Positions 810 through 11,561 of a DNA stretch of 13,370 nucleotides are shown here, piece by piece; the stretch's first letter is position 1; every line of letters starts with the position of its first letter. Source of the stretch: a virus. Its lineage: Duplodnaviria > Heunggongvirae > Uroviricota > Caudoviricetes. Under the pieces are notes generated by a model. That model saw only the letters and a program-made list of their open reading frames with translations. It was not told the DNA's origin and made no database searches. The translations under genes and the position numbers were made by a program. The stretch lies in IMG/VR virus record IMGVR_UViG_2526164628_000013; one strand, given 5' to 3'.

Positions 810-2000
810 ATGAATACTGGATATTCTCCCGAACAAGGGCGGGGCTTCGTTCGTCCTGAAAAACAGAATCTGCAAAATTTTGCCGAAATTATTCCGGTTA
901 TTTCCGGCCTTACTGGCGGGAGTGAAACCAATATTGTTAACGCCAGAGCGTTGCAGATGTTTGATGATAAAAAGGGAGTAAATTTAACTTACACCCCTGA
1001 CGGCAATCAGAATATGAGCATTATCTCTGAGTCAGGTTTCTACAAACTAATAAAAACAAAAAGCGCCCCGTTCCCGGAGCGCCTTTGTGAACAATTAACC
1101 TACTGCGCAAAAAATGAATCTGAGCAGTGGGATTATATCAACCGTGTGGCGAAGCGCCACAATTGCCGGATAACAGGCAAAACAAAGGCCACCCGCTACG
1201 GTGGCCCCTCGACACAAGCTACACGTTATCCCCAACGCATGAGCATCACCAACAATGCCACATTTGCGGCTGGTGGGCAATGTGATCAGTCAGATTTGGT
1301 TCGTTCCAAGGTTTGCAACGAGAGCTTTTTCCTGTGCTCTTTAAGGAATTTCTCAAGAGCAAAAGCACATGGCGCGAATCTTTCTGATTCATGCTCTATC
1401 TTTCTGCGCCGTCTTTTCCGTGCCGGTGATAATGTTTTGGTCAATTCTTTATCGGTCATTGTGTTGTCCTGCATAGCAATGCGCCGTAATACCTTACACC
1501 ACGGCGCTGATGGTGATTACTCTGGTTCTTTGGTCTTGCGACGCTGGAGTTCTTCGCGTGCAACGGTGACAAGCTGCCCGATTTCTTCCGCTGCTTTGAT
1601 GCCGATTTGTTCGACCTTAGCCAGGGCATCCAGTGACGACACAAGGGGATTTTCTCCGCTGCCTTCTGCTTGGCGGCGGGCTATTTCTCCGCGCATGGCG
1701 GTTACGATAAATCCGGCATTGCTTTCGCCGTCCAGCTTAACGGATTCCATCCCTTGCATAACATCTAGTGGGACTCTGACAGTTGTCAGTTGTGATTTTG
1801 CGTTTTTGTTAGCCGTTGCCATTTCTGAAACTCCTAATCATCGGTGTGTTTCAGTATACACAAAAAAAGAAATACAAAAAGCCTTGACGTGTGTTTCATG
1901 CGCTCATAACATGAAACACACCAAAAGAATTGTTGAAATACAAAGAGCAACGCCCCGCAGTGCCGGAAACACATACGGGGCGTCTAACCACCAACGATAG
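810..2000 (+). CDS. Hypothetical ORF; only the first ~155 codons (810..~1280) look protein-like, the rest is an open frame antisense to minus-strand genes and an operator region
   Basis: 396-codon open frame. N-terminal part has balanced composition; from ~1280 the translation becomes S/L/R/C-rich, typical of antisense reading, and it overlaps the RHH-like gene (1517..1822) which has a strong SD. Weak SD at 810. Confidence 0.3.
   Translation: MNTGYSPEQGRGFVRPEKQNLQNFAEIIPVISGLTGGSETNIVNARALQMFDDKKGVNLTYTPDGNQNMSIISESGFYKLIKTKSAPFPERLCEQLTYCAKNESEQWDYINRVAKRHNCRITGKTKATRYGGPSTQATRYPQRMSITNNATFAAGGQCDQSDLVRSKVCNESFFLCSLRNFSRAKAHGANLSDSCSIFLRRLFRAGDNVLVNSLSVIVLSCIAMRRNTLHHGADGDYSGSLVLRRWSSSRATVTSCPISSAALMPICSTLARASSDDTRGFSPLPSAWRRAISPRMAVTINPALLSPSSLTDSIPCITSSGTLTVVSCDFAFLLAVAISETPNHRCVSVYTKKEIQKALTCVSCAHNMKHTKRIVEIQRATPRSAGNTYGASNHQR
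1286..1459 (-). CDS. Small basic hypothetical protein (MTDKELTKTLSPARKRRRRKIEHES...)
   Basis: Minus-strand ORF downstream of the RHH-like gene; internal ATG at 1459 has AGGA 7 nt upstream; K/R-rich. Could be spurious. Confidence 0.3.
   Translation of the reverse strand: MTDKELTKTLSPARKRRRRKIEHESERFAPCAFALEKFLKEHRKKLSLQTLERTKSD
1517..1822 (-). CDS. Putative small DNA-binding regulator (possibly ribbon-helix-helix), divergent from the rightward operon
   Basis: 101-aa ORF with protein-like composition; ATG at 1822 preceded on the minus strand by AGGAG with 8-nt spacer; its upstream region carries the palindromic operator at 1889-1921. Fold assignment is inference. Confidence 0.6.
   Translation of the reverse strand: MATANKNAKSQLTTVRVPLDVMQGMESVKLDGESNAGFIVTAMRGEIARRQAEGSGENPLVSSLDALAKVEQIGIKAAEEIGQLVTVAREELQRRKTKEPE
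1884..1921 (+). promoter_or_regulatory. Rightward promoter (TTGACG -17- TAACAT) overlapped by a perfect 12-bp inverted repeat operator
   Basis: TTGACG 1884-1889, TAACAT 1907-1912. GTGTGTTTCATG (1889-1900) and CATGAAACACAC (1910-1921) are exact reverse complements with a 9-bp spacer; a third half-site GTGTGTTTCA lies at 1844-1853. Confidence 0.5.
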
Positions 2001-2019: not shown

Positions 2020-2226
2020 ATGAGAAATCATACCATACACCCGCAAGGGCGGGACTCGCACAACCTGAATAAATACATCTGGCGTTTTATCGCCCTGAGT
2101 ACGGCACAACCGCGCGTGATTACCATTGAGGCCACCAGCGAACAGGAAGCCCGTCAGCAATCACCGGCTGGCTGCGTGATGGTATTCGCCGCCCGTATTC
2201 GTCAGGGGGTGCACCATGTGCAATAA
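2020..2226 (+). CDS. Small hypothetical protein, first gene of the rightward operon (weak resemblance to Icd/Ash-like proteins of P4-type islands, unverified)
   Basis: ATG 2020 preceded by GAGG (2011-2014); MRNHTIHPQGRDSHNLNKYIWRFIALSTAQPRVITIEATSEQEARQQSPAGCVMVFAARI... Family call from memory only. Confidence 0.45.
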   Translation: MRNHTIHPQGRDSHNLNKYIWRFIALSTAQPRVITIEATSEQEARQQSPAGCVMVFAARIRQGVHHVQ

Positions 2227-2682: not shown

Positions 2683-2908
2683 TATTTACCACGAAACAAT
2701 AGACCGCGCATTTCTTGCACTTTCTCACAGTGAAAACATGCTGGAAATATTGCGCATATGGCTTGAAACACTTGGCGACAATGAACGCGACAAACAAAAA
2801 TCAAGAATTGCCACGGCATTAATAACGCTTCTTGAGCCTGTAATAATGGAACTGCAAGAAATAGATCTATTGCACGACAGATATAAAGAACAGCACACCG
2901 GAGAATAA
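2675..2908 (+). CDS. Hypothetical small protein (predicted helical)
   Basis: ATG 2675 overlaps the previous stop; GAGGA 8 nt upstream. Confidence 0.4.
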   Translation: MRDIYHETIDRAFLALSHSENMLEILRIWLETLGDNERDKQKSRIATALITLLEPVIMELQEIDLLHDRYKEQHTGE

Positions 2909-2913
2909 AAATA

Positions 2914-3213
2914 ATGAAACTTAAATATTCTGGCTTAACTGCCAGTGGCAACACTCACCCTAAATTTACGCGCGGTGATATTTACCGCGACCAGTACGGC
3001 GGCACGGTAATGATTAAGGGCGTGGAAGAACGGCGCGTAATCTACCGCCGTGAAGGTTACGAATATGATTGCGTGATGCCTGTTTATCAGTTCCGGTGTG
3101 ATTTTTCTCTGGTACAGACCGCGCCGCATAACGTGCCCACCAGCAACGCCAGGGCACGGGCAAACATCCAGAAGCTGAAAACCATGATTAACGGATTCAG
3201 GGGCAAGAAATGA
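2914..3213 (+). CDS. Hypothetical small protein immediately upstream of and overlapping the replication helicase gene
   Basis: ATG 2914; stop overlaps ATG 3210 of the next gene (ATGA-type coupling). Confidence 0.45.
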   Translation: MKLKYSGLTASGNTHPKFTRGDIYRDQYGGTVMIKGVEERRVIYRREGYEYDCVMPVYQFRCDFSLVQTAPHNVPTSNARARANIQKLKTMINGFRGKK

Positions 3214-4625
3214 AAAGCGCACCGAACTTAAAAAAACAGCCTTACGACAAAATGACCGAAGTCATTATTTTTGCGGGTAGTGATGCCTGGGCGCACGCGA
3301 AACAATGGCAGGAGCAGGACGGGCGACTTGCTGGCGACAATGTTCCGCCTGTATGGCTGGGAGACAGCCAGCTTGACGAACTGGCAGGCCTGAAAATTAT
3401 CGACGATGGTCGCTATTGTGTCCGACTGTACAAGGCAGGCCACATCAAGCCGTCAAATATTAATGCCATCGGGCAAAAGCTGGCGGCGGCAGGTGTACGG
3501 GATGCGAATTATTACCCTGAGGGAATGCACAGTCAGAAGCTGGAGAACTGGCACGACTACCTGCAACGGATCCGCGAACAGGCAGAGCGCGGGGAAATAC
3601 TTACTGACGAGCAATACAGCCAGCGAAAAACCACGCTACCAATGAGCATTGGATCTGCAGGGTACGACACACAGCTTGATTATGTCGTTAAGGGCGTGAT
3701 TCCGGCTAATTCATTGTGCAGCACATACGGCGCGAGCGGTTCCTATAAATCGTTCCTCGCGTGTTCCTGGGCGTGTCATGTTGCCACGGGTCGCCACTGG
3801 GGAGGTCGCAGGGTGGCGCATGGTTCGGTGATGTATGTTGTCGGTGAAGGTGGCATTGGTGTCCCCCGCCGTATCAAGGCATGGGAAATCGTTAATGATG
3901 AACGGGTGAAAAATCTGTACCTGGTAAACCGCCCGATTTTTCCTGCAGCCCAGTTTGATGTTGATGAAATGGTTATCGCATCCCGCCAGGTTGAACGGGA
4001 AACGGGTAAACCGGTACGCATGATTATTCTGGATACGCTGGCGCGTTGCTTTGGCGGTAATGATGAAAATGACGCGCGGGATATGGGGGCGTTTATCCGT
4101 GGATGTGACGAACTGAAACGACGCACAGGGGCCACGGTGCTGGTGGTTCACCATTCCGGCAAGGATGAAACAAAAGGGGCGCGTGGTTCCAGTGCATTTC
4201 GTGCATCTCTGGACGCTGAGTACCGGATCCGCCGCGAAGGCGCGGACAGTGAGGCCCTGGTTATCTCCTGCACCAAAATGAAGGACGCGGAGGAACTGAA
4301 AGAGGCTGCATATGATTTACGTGTGGTGGAGCTTTTTACCGACGCTGACAAGGAGTTAATCACGTCGCTGGTGGTTGTGGATAAGCCGCGCCCACCCGTT
4401 GAACTGGAGCGCATCGAGGAGGCCGGAAACAAGACGGAGAATCACGCCGCACTATGGGGCTGTATCCGGTCACGCACACAGCGCGGCGATAAATGCACTA
4501 TCCCGTTGTTGCGCGATGATATGAAAAAGCTGGGGTATGAGATGAAAAACTTCCGGCGCTGGCTGTACAAGCTGGAAAGAGACGGCGTTATCGCTATTGA
4601 CGGTGATGATGTGCGCCCACTGTAA
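3210..4625 (+). CDS. Replication protein: RepA/DnaB-like P-loop helicase (satellite/PICI pri-rep-like) with C-terminal winged-helix-like tail
   Basis: 471 aa. Walker A-like YGASGSYKS, RecA-fold signatures MIILDTLARCFGG and VLVVHHSGKD; basic C-terminal ~60 aa plausibly DNA-binding. Iteron array begins at its stop codon. Confidence 0.75.
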   Translation: MKSAPNLKKQPYDKMTEVIIFAGSDAWAHAKQWQEQDGRLAGDNVPPVWLGDSQLDELAGLKIIDDGRYCVRLYKAGHIKPSNINAIGQKLAAAGVRDANYYPEGMHSQKLENWHDYLQRIREQAERGEILTDEQYSQRKTTLPMSIGSAGYDTQLDYVVKGVIPANSLCSTYGASGSYKSFLACSWACHVATGRHWGGRRVAHGSVMYVVGEGGIGVPRRIKAWEIVNDERVKNLYLVNRPIFPAAQFDVDEMVIASRQVERETGKPVRMIILDTLARCFGGNDENDARDMGAFIRGCDELKRRTGATVLVVHHSGKDETKGARGSSAFRASLDAEYRIRREGADSEALVISCTKMKDAEELKEAAYDLRVVELFTDADKELITSLVVVDKPRPPVELERIEEAGNKTENHAALWGCIRSRTQRGDKCTIPLLRDDMKKLGYEMKNFRRWLYKLERDGVIAIDGDDVRPL

Positions 4626-4826
4626 AAAGTGAGGCGCAAAAGTGAGGGGATAGCAGGAACTGAACAAAAAGCAACCGCGCCCCTCACTTTTCAATCTGTA
4701 TATAGGCTCAAAAGTGAGGAATAAAAAACACATTGAAAAACAACATATTAGAATCACAAAAAAACAAGGTTGGAAATCATGTGGGGAGCTTAAAAAGTGA
4801 GGCGAAAAAGTGGGGAGTAGTGGGGA
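4625..4826. repeat. Iteron array, putative replication origin: AAAAGTGAGG direct repeats plus one inverted copy and an AT-rich stretch
   Basis: AAAAGTGAGG at 4625, 4638, 4710, 4793; variant AAAAGTGGGG at 4806; inverted copy CCTCACTTTT at 4682-4691; AT-rich 4720-4770. Lies directly after the helicase gene. Confidence 0.6.
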
Positions 4827-6764: not shown

Positions 6765-6958
6765 ATGGCTACTCATTACACTGAACTCATGTCTGGCACT
6801 GAAGCACTGGTTACTACGCTGGGGATATTTTCAGCCAATAAAGGGGTAATACCTGCGTTTACGCCACTGATGCAGGAAGATGCAACTGGTGCGCTAGTGG
6901 TATGGGATGGAACGAGCGCAGGCAAAGCGGTTTATGTTTCCGCTGTACAAATCGACAC
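6765..6958 (+). pseudogene. Head decoration protein (lambda gpD-like), 3'-truncated by IS629
   Basis: SD AAGGGGGA then ATG 6765. ...AFTPLMQEDATGALVVWDGTSAGKAVYVSAVQ... resembles the lambda gpD core. Reading frame runs into the IS629 left end at 6959 after ~64 native codons (gpD is ~110 aa). Confidence 0.6.
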
Positions 6959-7012
6959 TGAACCGCCCCGGGAATCCTGGAGACTAAACTCCCTGAGAAA
7001 GAGGTAAACAGG

Positions 7013-7339
7013 ATGACTAAAAATACTCGTTTTTCCCCCGAAGTCCGTCAGAGGGCGATTCGTATGGTTCTGGAAAGTCAGGGCGAATATGACTCACAGT
7101 GGGCGGCAATTTGTTCCATTGCCCCAAAGATTGACTGTACACCGGAGACTCTGCGTGTCTGGGTACGCCAGCATGAGCGGGATACCGGAGGCGGTGATGG
7201 CGGGCTCACCACCGCTGAACGTCAGCGTCTGAAAGAGCTGGAACGTGAAAATCGTGAACTGCGCCGCAGTAACGATATCCTTCGCCAGGCTTCCGCTTAT
7301 TTTGCGAAGGCGGAGTTCGACCGCCTCTGGAAAAAGTGA
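7013..7339 (+). CDS. IS629 OrfA (transposase N-terminal/HTH component)
   Basis: [30 protein letters not shown]...[18 protein letters not shown], 108 aa. Confidence 0.85.
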
Positions 7340-8226
7340 TGCCACTGCTGGATAAGCTGCGTAAGCTGTACGGGGTCGGACCGGTATGCAGTGAACTACA
7401 TATTGCCCCGTCAACGTATTACCACTGTCAGCAACAGCGACATCATCCTGATAAACGCAGTGCCCGTGCGCAGCGCGATGACTGGCTGAAGAAAGAGATA
7501 CTGCGCGTATACGATGGGAATCATCAGGTATACGGTGTGCGTAAAGTCTGGCGTCAGTTGTTACGGGAAGGAATCAGGGTAGCCAGATGTACAGTGGCGC
7601 GCCTCATGGCGGTTATGGGACTTGCCGGTGTTCTCCGGGGTAAAAAGGTCCGCACTACCGTCAGCCGGAAAGCCGTTGCCGCAGGCGACCGCGTAAACCG
7701 TCAGTTTGTGGCAGAACGTCCTGACCAGTTGTGGGTGGCTGATTTTACTTACGTCAGCACATGGCAGGGGGTCGTCTATGTGGCGTTCATCATTGATGTG
7801 TTTGCCGGATACATCGTGGGGTGGCGGGTCTCATCGTCTATGGAAACGACATTCGTGCTGGATGCTCTGGAGCAGGCGTTATGGGCCCGTCGACCGTCCG
7901 GCACAGTCCATCACAGTGATAAAGGTTCTCAGTATGTATCGCTGGCCTACACACAGCGGCTTAAGGAAGCCGGATTACTGGCATCAACAGGAAGTACTGG
8001 TGACTCGTATGACAACGCGATGGCGGAGAGCATCAATGGCCTTTACAAAGCGGAGGTAATACACCGTAAGAGCTGGAAAAACCGGACAGAAGTGGAACTG
8101 GCCACACTCACGTGGGTGGACTGGTATAACAATCGACGATTGCTGGAAAGGCTGGGCCATATCCCACCGGCAGAAGCAGAAAAAGCTTATTATGCTTCCA
8201 TCGGAAACGATGATCTGGCAGCCTGA
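7336..8226 (+). CDS. IS629 OrfB (transposase catalytic component; -1 frame relative to orfA)
   Basis: 296 aa with rve-type integrase core (…[14 protein letters not shown]…[10 protein letters not shown]…[10 protein letters not shown]…); overlaps orfA end, typical of IS3-family frameshift organisation. Confidence 0.85.
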
Positions 8227-8280: not shown

Positions 8281-9831
8281 TCATCGCACACCGCCTTTTT
8301 CCTGATGAAAGCGGCAACGAGCAATCACGGATTGAATTTCAAATTGTGTGGTTTCATGGATTGAAATAAGTGGATTGCGGGCGTTACCAACACTGTCTGA
8401 AATGGAAATCAATTCATCGACTTCTTTAACTACACTCTCCAGCACCGCCTGATGGTCACCATCAGTAAAGGGGCGGAAATACAGGCAACCGTAGCAGCAG
8501 CGTACTTCACTGAATGGGCATTTGCCATCATCTCTGGAGCAACCGCCAATCCCATCATGCAACTCATCACCGATTATGCCGACCACGCGCTGGTCTTGCC
8601 ATTTCGTTGAAGAGGTCAGTTCACCAGTCAACATCATAGCCACCATGTTTTGCCATACCGGATTGATACCCAATGCTTTGGCTCGAATCAGTGCCAGTGC
8701 AGGCGTCGCCAGAATGTAATACTTGGCAACAGTAAGGGAGCTATGTCCCAGAATATGCGCAATTTCCTCGGCGCTGACCCCTTGCATAGCCAGTGAATGC
8801 CCCACGTTGTGGCGCAAGTCGGTCGGGGTAATGGTTGGCAAAGCCGCTTCGCCACGCTTTACGGCTGCCTGATAATCTGGCGGACTGAAACAGAGGAAGG
8901 CCTTGTTAATCGCTCTGGACACATTAAACGGTGCAGAGTTACTAAATTCAAATAGCTTGCCATCAGGTTTTAGTTGCGCTCGCTCGATATAGTGCCTAAT
9001 CAACGCGCCGATTTCAGCTGGAATCGCCAAAAACAGACGTTCAGTCGTTACGTGCCGCTGTTTGGCGTAAGGAAGGAGTAAGCTATATCGTATTAATCCG
9101 GTTTCGGAGTTTCGGGTATCAATACGTAAATCTTTTACCGCCAGCTTGGCCAGTTGTACCGGTCGGGCACCGGTGACATACGTCAGTCCCAGAATTACTG
9201 CATCTCGCATGGTGTTCAGACTGTAGTTTTCGCCATACCGAATCGCCACAGCCATTTCAAACAAGCCTTTACTGATCATGTTTTTTTCGAGGGGATCCAG
9301 AACATGATCAATTTCCTGATAGATTCCCCAGTCATGGGAGTGCGGGCGAGGGATGAATTCGAGGTCTTCATAATCTTCGAGGGTAAAACCAGGGAATGCT
9401 TCGGTACAGAGGATTTTTAGGCCGAAAATGATAAAGTAGAAATATTGAGGTTTAATTTCCTGAGTTTCGAGGTAATCTTTCAACACCGTAAAAGTGAAAG
9501 CAGATTTGCTTATGCAATGATCAGTTGCCAAAGACCACGCATGGAGTACCCCAGGAACCTGAGCTGGACACTTGGCAGATGCATAATGGAAGCAAATATA
9601 TTTGATTAATTGGTTGCTGATTTTATCCTGACGAAAGTGGGCATAGCAGCGGCTTCCTGAATAATCGAATACCCAACTGTCACTTGTTGAGCTGATATAT
9701 TTGTCATCAAAATGATCTGCCGATTTAAGATAAATACTAACTGGTATATTAACCTTTAAAATACTCTCAACAAATACAGGTGTGTAAATGTTGCTGTTCG
9801 ACGCATTTAACTGTTTATTGATTCGACTCAT
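8281..9831 (-). CDS. Large tyrosine recombinase (~516 aa) with extended N-terminal domain and ~135-aa C-terminal extension carrying a Cys cluster
   Basis: Box I-like LGLTYVTGARPVQLAKL, box II-like TDLRHNVGH and LGHSSLTVAKYY (catalytic Tyr). Start at ATG 9831 (GGAG 5 nt upstream); in-frame ATGs also at 9846 and 9855. Stop lies 12 bp from the IS629 right end. Confidence 0.7.
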   Translation of the reverse strand: MSRINKQLNASNSNIYTPVFVESILKVNIPVSIYLKSADHFDDKYISSTSDSWVFDYSGSRCYAHFRQDKISNQLIKYICFHYASAKCPAQVPGVLHAWSLATDHCISKSAFTFTVLKDYLETQEIKPQYFYFIIFGLKILCTEAFPGFTLEDYEDLEFIPRPHSHDWGIYQEIDHVLDPLEKNMISKGLFEMAVAIRYGENYSLNTMRDAVILGLTYVTGARPVQLAKLAVKDLRIDTRNSETGLIRYSLLLPYAKQRHVTTERLFLAIPAEIGALIRHYIERAQLKPDGKLFEFSNSAPFNVSRAINKAFLCFSPPDYQAAVKRGEAALPTITPTDLRHNVGHSLAMQGVSAEEIAHILGHSSLTVAKYYILATPALALIRAKALGINPVWQNMVAMMLTGELTSSTKWQDQRVVGIIGDELHDGIGGCSRDDGKCPFSEVRCCYGCLYFRPFTDGDHQAVLESVVKEVDELISISDSVGNARNPLISIHETTQFEIQSVIARCRFHQEKGGVR

Positions 9832-10237
9832 ATGCACTCCATTCATCGCATACATGGGAAAAGGTTGATTTCAGGGCTTCGTTATCAATCACAATTCGCT
9901 GAAGATTGGCCGTATTAGCCTGCTGAGATAGAAATCTTTTAGCGTAAAGATCAGGCATATGGCTATTGTGACTCCAACCGCCAAGTAGCCGTAATTCATC
10001 CTTGGCTTCATCCATCAATCCAACGATAGAAAAGTCTATGGCTGCCAAGTGTGAGTTGGCCTTAATTTTTTGAAGTTTATCACGATAAATACGTTGAAGT
10101 GTTAAATAAGCCCAAGTATGCCGCGTTATATGAGGCGAGATGCTTTCAATGGCATCATAATATTCATCTTTTTTATATTCAGGATACTGCACACTCATAA
10201 TGTCATCAATACGGGTAAAGATATCATAGACTGCATG

Positions 10238-10242
10238 GTATG
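10238..10242. repeat. IS2 target-site duplication, left copy (GTATG)
   Basis: GTATG immediately left of the IS2 end at 10243; identical to 11573-11577. Confidence 0.8.
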
Positions 10243-10333
10243 TAGACTGGCCCCCTGAATCTCCAGACAACCAATATCACTTAAATAAGTGATAGTCTTA
10301 ATACTAGTTTTTAGACTAGTCATTGGAGAGCAG

Positions 10334-10663
10334 ATGATTGATGTCTTAGGACCGGAGAAACGCAGACGGCGTACTACACAGGAAAAGATCGCTATTGTTC
10401 AGCAGAGTTTTGAACCGGGAATGACGGTCTCCCTTGTTGCCCGGCAACACGGTGTGGCAGCCAGCCAGTTATTTCTCTGGCGCAAGCAATACCAGGAGGG
10501 AAGTCTTACTGCTGTGGCCGCAGGAGAGCAGGTCGTTCCTGCCTCTGAACTTGCTGCTGCCATGAAGCAGATTAAAGAACTCCAGCGCCTGCTCGGCAAA
10601 AAACGATGGAAAATGAACTCCTTAAAGAAGCCGTTGAATACGGGCGTGCAAAAAAGTGGATAG
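10334..10663 (+). CDS. insC: IS2 OrfA (InsC), apparently frameshifted in this copy
   Basis: [18 protein letters not shown]...LQRLLGKK matches InsC, then the frame diverges (…[19 protein letters not shown]) while the expected InsC C-terminus [31 protein letters not shown] is encoded in the +1 frame from 10603. A-run at 10598-10603 is 6 A. Confidence 0.75.
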
Positions 10664-11561
10664 CGCACGCGCCCTTATTGCCCGGGGATGGGGAGTAAGC
10701 TTAGTCAGCCGTTGTCTCCGGGTGTCGCGTGCGCAGTTGCACGTAATTCTCAGACGAACCGATGACTGGAAAGATGGTCGCCGCAGCCGTCACTCAGATG
10801 ATACGGATGTGCTTCTCCGTATACACCATGTTATCGGAGAGCTGCCCACGTATGGTTATCGTCGGGTATGGGCGCTGCTTCGCAGACAGGCCGAACTTGA
10901 TGGTATGCCTGCGATCAATGCCAAACGTGTTTACCGGATCATGCGCCAGAATGCGCTGTTGCTTGAGCGAAAAACCGCTGTACCGCCATCGAAACGGGCA
11001 CATACTGGCAAAGTGGCCGTGAAAGAAAGCAATCAACGATGGTGCTCTGACGGGTTCGAGTTCCGCTGTGATAACGGAGAAAAACTGCGAGTCACGTTCG
11101 CGCTGGACTGCTGTGACCGTGAGGCACTGCACTGGGCAGTCACTACGGGCGGCTTCGACAGTGAAACAGTACAGGACGTAATGCTGGGAGCGGTGGAACG
11201 CCGCTTCGGCAACGAGCTTCCGGCGTCTCCAGTAGAGTGGCTGACGGATAATGGTTCATGCTACCGGGCTAATGAAACACGGCAGTTTGCCCGGATGTTG
11301 GGGCTTGAACCGAAGAACACGGCGGTGCGGAGTCCGGAGAGTAACGGCATAGCAGAGAGCTTCGTGAAAACGATAAAGCGTGACTACATCAGTATCATGC
11401 CTAAACCAGACGGGTTAACGGCAGCAAAGAACCTTGCAGAGGCGTTCGAGCATTATAACGAATGGCATCCGCATAGTGCACTGGGTTATCGCTCGCCACG
11501 GGAATATCTGCGGCAGCAGGCCAGTAATGGGTTAAGTGATAACAGGTGTCTGGAAATATAG
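10656..11561 (+). CDS. insD: IS2 OrfB (InsD transposase catalytic component)
   Basis: 301 aa, [34 protein letters not shown]... matches InsD as recalled; GTG start just after the A6G slippery motif (10650-10656). Confidence 0.85.

Follow-up and report, generated by a model that had tools for sequence, protein, structure and literature searches.

What controls the early genes of a phage satellite, and which protein reads the repeated sequence found at their promoter, are the questions raised by the stretch of DNA analysed here, the 13,370-nucleotide virus record IMGVR_UViG_2526164628_000013 (Caudoviricetes) of IMG/VR, the whole of which is referred to as the window. Its gene content points to a phage-inducible chromosomal island (PICI) of Gram-negative bacteria, in which the alpA gene, encoding the activator AlpA, is followed by a regulatory zone and by a rightward early operon that opens with a gene for an Icd-like protein. 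A sequence-only reading had proposed that a perfect palindrome in this zone forms a repressor/operator arrangement that could be the induction switch of the element. Comparison with related islands indicates that positions 1844-1921 are very probably the PICI's control region, where the ribbon-helix-helix (RHH) product of the leftward gene at 1517-1822 would bind four sites that together form a two-operator switch.

The arms of the palindrome, GTGTGTTTCATG at 1889-1900 on the plus strand and CATGAAACACAC at 1910-1921 on the minus strand, are 100% complementary across a 9-nt spacer both by direct reading and in a repeat search, as had been claimed. A perfect 12-bp inverted repeat with a loop of at most 30 nt is expected 0.033 times per window and is present in 2.6% of windows simulated with a first-order Markov model. 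The rightward early promoter, P_R, is represented on the plus strand by the -35 hexamer TTGACG (1884-1889) and, 17 nt further on, the -10 hexamer TAACAT (1907-1912), with a predicted start near 1919; this pair is the sole sigma-70-like match within 1200-2400. The hexamers and their spacing are as first read, whereas the palindrome does not lie between them but overlaps both, its left arm beginning on the last base of the -35 and its right arm covering the predicted start together with the final three bases of the -10. The match to a promoter is not significant by itself, one being found against 1.1 expected by chance, and the support for P_R comes from the conservation of its hexamers across 21 loci rather than from match statistics.

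An exact copy of GTGTGTTTCA is located at 1844-1853, 45 bp start-to-start from 1889, and this exact 10-mer occurs three times on both strands of the 13.4-kb window, all inside the 78 bp of 1844-1921. This copy was earlier described as a third half-site 45 bp away; it is present as stated, but rather than standing alone it is the outer half of an imperfect operator completed by GAAATACA at 1869-1876 (TGTATTTC on the minus strand, to which the site is assigned), where the core matches in 7/8 positions. Operator O1 accordingly comprises site 2, the left arm of the palindrome within the P_R spacer, and site 1, its right arm, and operator O2 comprises site 3, the imperfect inner half, which covers the -35 region of P_L, the leftward promoter of the regulator, and site 4, the plus-strand outer half at 1844-1853, which abuts the P_L -10 TATACT (1853-1858, minus strand) and covers the predicted P_L start. 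The cores of O2 are spaced by 16 nt, a distance kept in classes A and B of the operators described below. Two further copies were considered as operator sites and rejected: the fourth TGTGTTTC, at 1966-1973, is part of a hairpin variant that is also found in loci of other classes (L015 and L027), and GAAATACA at 1935-1942, a candidate fifth site ('site 0'), coincides with the U-rich tail of a minus-strand terminator and is not class-specific elsewhere.

Alignment on the P_R -35 of 21 distinct loci, drawn from Escherichia, Xenorhabdus, Photorhabdus, Serratia, Enterobacter, Klebsiella, Salmonella, Erwinia, Pantoea, Phytobacter and a record titled Martelella, reveals a fixed layout. In the 20 correctly anchored loci, 60-64 nt separate the TTGAC-like -35 from the start codon of the regulator (L013 was mis-anchored by the script, its hexamer TTGCAA lying further on), a TAnnnT -10 follows 17-18 nt downstream in 19-20 of the 21, and on the opposite strand the TAnnnT -10 of P_L occupies a fixed place in all 21, whatever the operator class. 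The four repeat sites also hold their positions, with sites 2 and 1 over the spacer, -10 and start of P_R and sites 3 and 4 bracketing the P_L -10; a class-specific site stands at the position of site 4 in 21/21 loci. From one site start to the next there are 21-24 bp, or about two turns of the helix, and the half-sites are fixed while the spacers between them vary freely, with about seven distinct 15-nt spacers in class A. The orientation of the sites is mixed, being inverted in classes A to D and direct in classes E, F and G: the class E loci (L007, L011, L012 and L015) carry direct repeats at the O1 positions, in the class with strand motif xKN sites 2 and 3 are flipped, which makes sites 1 and 2 direct repeats, and in EcCICFT073 sites 1 and 2 are direct and 23 bp apart. 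Because some classes carry direct repeats, the conserved feature is a set of repeated sites at fixed positions and not a hairpin-forming palindrome; a search for conservation of the palindrome in related islands, which the sequence-only reading had suggested, accordingly finds the positions of the four sites preserved in the 21 loci but not a universal palindromic orientation. The comparison supports two operators made up of four sites, in place of one palindrome with a stray half-site.

The sequence of the sites differs between loci and follows residues 12-17 of the adjacent regulator, which align with the strand that Arc uses to read DNA, yielding seven specificity classes. Specifically, the strand LTTVRV is paired with the operator word TGTGTTTC in the window and seven other loci, SLTARI with GTGTAAG (L005, L023 and L025), QISIRI with TGTGATTC (L021 and L022), Q[LI]NARF with GG[TG]ATTCA (L013 and L018), RIDARV with GTGTCCGACAC (L028), and ALKARV with GTGGGCCACAC (EcCICFT073). 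The strand xKN[IV]R is paired with GTGTG[TC]AT in L007, L011 and L012, with L015 and L017 retaining no more than the common GTGTG core. The class-specific words are confined to their own class but for three isolated single matches, and the beta-strand is the only protein segment that varies with the operator. The pairing was also examined prospectively, by retrieving IMG/VR contigs with the operator pattern alone and then inspecting the adjacent YlcI-like open reading frame (ORF): the predicted strand was found in 98/98 loci having such an ORF, namely LTTVR[VI]P in 48/48, S[LV]TARI[PA] in 27/27, QISIRIP in 7/7 and QLNARFP in 16/16. For class B, a 15-base pattern gave mostly chance matches and was dropped for one of 18 bases; pattern matches without a YlcI-like ORF are contig ends or chance, and are many for the loosest, 16-base pattern. 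Alanine replaces proline at position 18 in 21 short-form proteins. The beta-strand most likely reads the repeat sites and in doing so would set the specificity of the regulator.

The sites might instead be operators for AlpA, the Icd-like product or a host factor, with the YlcI-like gene a mere linked passenger. The regulator of these islands established by experiment is AlpA (PMC6092414), the PHROG families that match the Icd-like protein are labelled transcriptional repressor, and operator and regulator are physically linked, so that their correlation alone is no proof of binding. This explanation is nonetheless quite unlikely, since operator class is uncoupled from both AlpA sequence and Icd-like type. 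The AlpA of the window is 92% identical to that of L025 and 97% identical to that of EcCICFT073, yet its operators belong to class A, those of L025 to class B and those of EcCICFT073 to a different class again, and conversely L018 and L019 have identical regulators and operators with unrelated AlpA proteins and different neighbours. Two N-terminal types of the Icd-like protein are mixed across the operator classes, and in E. coli the Icd-like leader and gene (about 1942 to 2226) are about 90% conserved in many genomes with differing upstream cassettes. A host factor would also leave seven class-specific words inexplicable, and the one protein segment that varies with the operator belongs to the YlcI-like regulator. 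The repressor/operator reading is supported, then, by promoter hexamers fixed in 21 loci and by a co-variation of repeat and beta-strand that has no counterpart in AlpA or the Icd-like protein.

One locus replaces the regulator altogether: L027 (E. coli CEA224S, 2739-3072), which has no YlcI-like gene, encodes an unrelated 64-residue protein with an Arc-like strand motif, FHMRIVPELKEQF, and carries three GTGTACAC repeats. Because the conserved Icd-like leader follows different upstream cassettes, as in L027, the unit of regulator, operators and promoters behaves as an exchangeable immunity cassette, with a right-hand recombination breakpoint near 1942-1953.

The regulator gene itself (1517-1822, minus strand) encodes 101 amino acids and is preceded by a Shine-Dalgarno sequence, AGGAG, 8 nt upstream of its ATG. 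Residues 9-50 match the 42-residue N-terminal model YlcI_YnfO_N of NCBIfam (NF041551) with 63.2 bits against a cutoff of 30, and homologues are spread across the Enterobacterales, two of them bearing the UniRef name 'Arc-like DNA binding domain-containing protein'. The protein matches no Pfam family; Pfam Arc (PF03869) matched neither it nor any of 22 homologues, even at E values up to 10. A search with the N-terminal 56 residues reached no more distant relatives, and no literature on the function of the YlcI/YnfO family was found. A model of residues 1-56 based on a 30-sequence alignment has a mean predicted local distance difference test score (pLDDT) of 89.6, with an extended N-terminus followed by helices at 19-28 and 35-53. 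Residues ~10-53 show the pattern of an RHH domain, an N-terminal beta-strand and two helices in about 45 residues, and R16 and P18 align with R13 and P15 of Arc. DSSP assigned no paired strand in the monomer model. The top structural matches include the Omega repressor (1irq and 2bnw); a Foldseek search with the regulator models returned no matches, and a PDB profile search of the regulator gave no RHH match. We conclude from the predicted fold that the N-terminal domain is of the ribbon-helix-helix type, in a family other than Pfam Arc; this bears out the earlier assignment of an RHH-like regulator to 1517-1822.

The C-terminal half is modelled as one long helix (residues 57-98) and may be an oligomerisation or sensor domain; the PDB profile search gave it a weak helix-hairpin-helix-like match to Hef (E 0.004), which is taken as a lead only. 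This half (residues 57-101, window 1517-1654) is modular, occurring in a long form, being replaced by an unrelated alternative helix in proteins such as P0137 and P0149, and being absent from short forms of 59-65 residues.

Downstream of the regulator in the leftward operon, a small and very basic ORF of 62 amino acids (1286-1474, minus strand) matches phrog_21027, a family of unknown function, with an E value of 1.9e-14. A 57-residue homologue occupies the equivalent place in EcCICFT073, while the ORF is absent or unrelated in L015, L018, L023 and L025 and is not conserved in all loci. An arrangement in which the RHH protein is a type II antitoxin with the 62-residue product as its toxin, so that the repeats autoregulate the pair rather than the early operon, is very unlikely: many loci that keep the regulator and both operators lack this ORF or have an unrelated one where a conserved toxin would be expected, the best-conserved pair of sites, O1, sits in the conserved P_R and not in the regulator's own promoter, and the product matches no known toxin family in Pfam, NCBIfam or PHROGs. 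The ORF is an accessory gene whose expression would be expected in the repressed state. The leftward operon probably ends at a terminator-like hairpin at 1184-1209 on the minus strand, identified by the terminator scan with a 10-bp stem, six GC pairs and a T-rich tail. This hairpin and another at 1059-1086 are good terminators on the minus strand only and poor ones on the plus strand, so that rightward read-through from alpA is possible; AlpA-driven read-through from the alpA promoter as a bypass of repression is a speculation.

Least credible of all is a role for the palindrome as a structure in the nucleic acid itself, whether as RNA hairpin, terminator, attenuator or DNA cruciform, instead of as a site for a protein. 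As RNA, each of its strands does fold stably (-16.1 and -18.5 kcal/mol, z about -4.5). However, the palindrome is upstream of the two predicted starts, so that neither promoter should transcribe the whole of it; it is followed by no U-tract and is not called by the terminator scan; it is replaced at equivalent positions of the class E loci by direct repeats that make a hairpin impossible; and it changes in concert with the word copies at sites 3 and 4.

In the two-operator switch that we favour, the beta-strand of the RHH protein would read the four sites of 8-11 bp, set 21-24 bp apart, with the C-terminal helix probably linking dimers bound two turns from one another. Since sites 1 and 2 cover the spacer, -10 and start point of P_R, occupancy of O1 should exclude RNA polymerase from this promoter and would leave the early operon silent, including the genes for the Icd-like protein, the DUF4222 protein, the helicase, the single-stranded DNA-binding protein (SSB) and the capsid. 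As sites 3 and 4 bracket the P_L -10, occupancy of O2 is proposed to let the regulator autoregulate P_L. Physical binding, the negative sign of the control and the oligomeric state of the protein are inferred, as is any part played in induction by a helper phage, and the role of the region as an induction switch is plausible but unproven. Several points weigh against the proposal. The operators and the codons of the beta-strand are found within ~100 bp and pass on together as a single cassette, which makes linkage a partial confounder of their co-variation; no -35 is recognisable for P_L; a centre-to-centre site spacing of 23 bp is unusual for RHH operators, that of Arc being 11 bp; and the published account of induction proceeds through the activator AlpA and invokes no repressor (PMC6092414).

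Control of the early operon may have a second component in the leader of the Icd-like gene. This leader, at about 1945-2019 between P_R and the start codon of the gene, contains in all loci two conserved hairpins that show compensatory changes, and the structure is well supported as belonging to the minus strand. Watson-Crick, G.U and mismatched pairs number 288, 61 and 8 on the minus strand and 288, 0 and 69 on the plus strand, counts that lean toward the minus strand because the structure used was predicted there. Folding energies are the fairer test, as each strand was folded independently: the consensus energy is -24.3 kcal/mol for the minus strand and -6.9 for the plus strand, and the mean single-sequence energies are -37.2 and -25.3 kcal/mol, the minus strand being the better in 17/17 sequences. 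The minus-strand RNA of the window folds with -34.4 kcal/mol (z -4.07), and the tail after the second hairpin is U-rich on the minus strand (4-7 U in 12 nt) and C-rich on the plus strand.

This minus-strand structure is probably an ~80-nt cis-antisense RNA (1935-2020) that starts near 2020, ends near 1940 and covers the 5' untranslated region and Shine-Dalgarno sequence of the Icd-like gene, to which it would be complementary throughout. Its predicted parts are a 5' hairpin at about 2020-1985, a single-stranded UUGGUGGUUAGA, a terminator hairpin at 1984-1949 and a U-rich tail at 1948-1935. A candidate extended -10, TGGTATGAT, is located on the minus strand at 2027-2035, just upstream of the structure and inside codons 3-6 of the Icd-like gene; the T1, A2 and T6 of its hexamer are invariant in 17/17 aligned loci, though the amino acids encoded opposite them differ. 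We infer from these features both the antisense promoter and the independent existence of the RNA. The leader was also considered as an immunity RNA of the C4/CI/isrK type (RF01695 and RF01394), an identity that was rejected, as these models had no match at gathering threshold in the window, and relaxing the E value to 10 gave none on either strand of 1750-2250. Nor does any Rfam family match the putative antisense RNA.

The assignment of the window to EcCICFT073-type Gram-negative PICIs, phage satellites distinct from full capsid-forming PICIs, rests on the gene order common to both, the 97% identity of AlpA, and capsid and decoration genes, which in EcCICFT073 are c1499/c1500, the pair described in the original paper on EcCICFT073 (PMC6092414). 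EcCICFT073 occupies 1377930-1388654 of the CFT073 genome. The order found in the window is that of PICIs: int, alpA, the regulatory zone, DUF4222, a primase/helicase with an iteron origin, SSB, and capsid and decoration genes. The control region is 100% identical to many E. coli chromosomes, with a match in 1753/5426 complete E. coli genomes. In E. coli clone D i14, which has an identical locus, the left part is annotated with an integrase, a helix-turn-helix protein (AlpA) and a leftward YlcI/YnfO-family gene, and the rightward part with an Icd-like protein, small ORFs, DUF4222, a RepA-family helicase, SSB, a major capsid protein, a head decoration protein and a small terminase; Pfam and NCBIfam scans of the window agree. 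The Icd-like gene (2020-2226, plus strand, 68 amino acids) matches NCBIfam NF033153 with 69.8 bits, and after it come small ORFs, DUF4222 and the gene for the RepA-type helicase (3210-4625). A rightward early operon beginning at 2020, as the earlier reading had it, is upheld by this match, by Pfam and by the clone D i14 annotation.

Directly past the RepA-type helicase gene, 4623-4815 contains at least six copies of AAAAGTGAGG in both orientations, and one pair, at 4638-4649 and 4680-4691, is inverted and matches perfectly over 12 bp. The arrangement resembles the iteron-type origin of replication that has been described for PICIs on the 3' side of rep. Further on, an IS3-family element interrupts the island at about 7010-8226, and this copy of the island may for that reason be defective downstream. 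The element has transposase domains at 7013-8226, in HTH_Tnp_1 and rve ORFs, and at 7294-7410 a frameshift pseudoknot that matches ALIL with 116 bits. The head-decoration gene (region 6765-8226) is shortened by the element to 80 amino acids, with a weak HDPD match. A minus-strand ORF of 524 amino acids with a phage-integrase domain (8281-9855) and a second IS3-type transposase pair (10289-11561) follow, and 8281-11561 is mosaic mobile DNA past the truncated island. On the plus strand, an ORF of 396 amino acids at 810-2000 passes antisense across the regulator gene and was rejected as spurious as a whole; by eye, the first ~90 codons look like a remnant of Bro-N (the C-terminal part of the domain), for which Pfam gave no match.

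The prototype EcCICFT073 carries an equivalent module (L348, NC_004431.1, locus coordinates 30243-31053). It encodes C_RS30120, with protein accession WP_000190587.1, a 59-residue short form of YlcI/YnfO with the strand ALKARV. Inside a TTGACG promoter it has two GTGGGCCACACC repeats in direct orientation at a distance of 23 bp, and the promoter is followed by an equivalent leader and an Icd-like gene. The RefSeq locus tag C_RS30120 is much newer than those of its neighbours, suggesting that the gene entered the annotation late. Induction in this type of PICI requires AlpA, which is also sufficient for it, overexpression being enough (PMC6092414). The EcCICFT073 literature terms the global repressor "unclear"; later surveys list AlpA as the sole regulator and the Icd-like gene as accessory (PMC13612085), and other later work discusses Bro-zone proteins and C4/isrK-type RNAs (PMC10111431).

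We raise tentatively, as a possibility that is open to doubt, that the YlcI/YnfO RHH protein, the two operators and the antisense RNA constitute the long-sought immunity module of Gram-negative PICIs. If so, the protein would be the master repressor that silences the island, with at least seven interchangeable specificity classes providing heteroimmunity among satellites; its variable C-terminal domain (long, alternative or absent) would be the target of AlpA-dependent events or of a helper-phage protein that lifts repression; and the antisense RNA of ~80 nt would provide a second lock for the toxic Icd-like gene and represent a new family of RNAs. In Gram-positive PICIs the master repressor Stl is inactivated by helper-phage proteins, and a candidate for its Gram-negative counterpart can now be tested, as a small RHH gene, with operators in the early promoter and in its own, is present in the prototype EcCICFT073 and in a large proportion of the related islands. 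The mechanism is uncharacterised for the YlcI/YnfO family and for Gram-negative PICIs; its kind is classical, and the value of the finding lies in making an open question testable. The specificity classes permit clean swaps, and EcCICFT073 is a model with existing genetics.

An RHH repressor with operators in divergent promoters is a classical mechanism, the logic of the present region being nearest to that of P22 immI and its position nearest to that of Stl in Staphylococcus aureus pathogenicity islands (SaPIs). In P22 immI, the RHH repressors Mnt and Arc act at the divergent promoters Pmnt and Pant, which have overlapping operators, and an antisense RNA, sar, is made. Shared with this system are a small RHH regulator divergent from the operon it would control, operators in back-to-back promoters and, as proposed, autoregulation, as well as a putative short antisense RNA whose apparent target is the ribosome-binding region of a gene downstream; in its beta-strand the regulator has a motif, xxRxPxEV, like that of Arc and Mnt. 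Unlike in P22, the sites are about 23 bp apart instead of 11 bp, the regulator has a different C-terminal domain (a long helix with weak helix-hairpin-helix similarity) and shows no significant homology to Arc (no match to Pfam Arc; hhalign probability 8%), and the controlled operon opens with an Icd-like gene and a replication module in a phage satellite rather than a phage.

In having a controlled operon that opens with an Icd-like division inhibitor after a structured RNA, the region resembles P1 immI (c4 RNA - icd - ant) and the CI system of P4. For the 'Bro zone' of Gram-negative PICIs, an immunity based on RNA has been put forward (PMC10111431). The P1 c4 and P4 CI RNAs are processed from the sense transcript, whereas the structured RNA described here lies on the opposite strand and leaves the Rfam C4 and isrK models unmatched. 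The Omega repressor of inc18 plasmids such as pSM19035 is an RHH dimer that binds short direct or inverted repeats cooperatively, and site orientations are mixed in the PICI loci too. However, the Omega heptads are contiguous 7-bp units and Omega has no long C-terminal helix, in contrast to the sites of 8-11 bp with a period of 21-24 bp and the long helix of the window regulator.

The closest parallel in position is Stl (Rpr) of SaPIs and other Gram-positive PICIs, which, with its divergent str promoter, likewise stands between the integrase end and the replication module and faces away from the main operon. Stl is larger and of the helix-turn-helix type, and its derepression by specific helper-phage proteins has been demonstrated, whereas the window regulator is predicted to be an RHH protein in an island type whose induction is attributed to AlpA. 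For the repressor 'missing' from Gram-negative PICIs, Stl offers the obvious analogue in function (PMC6092414).

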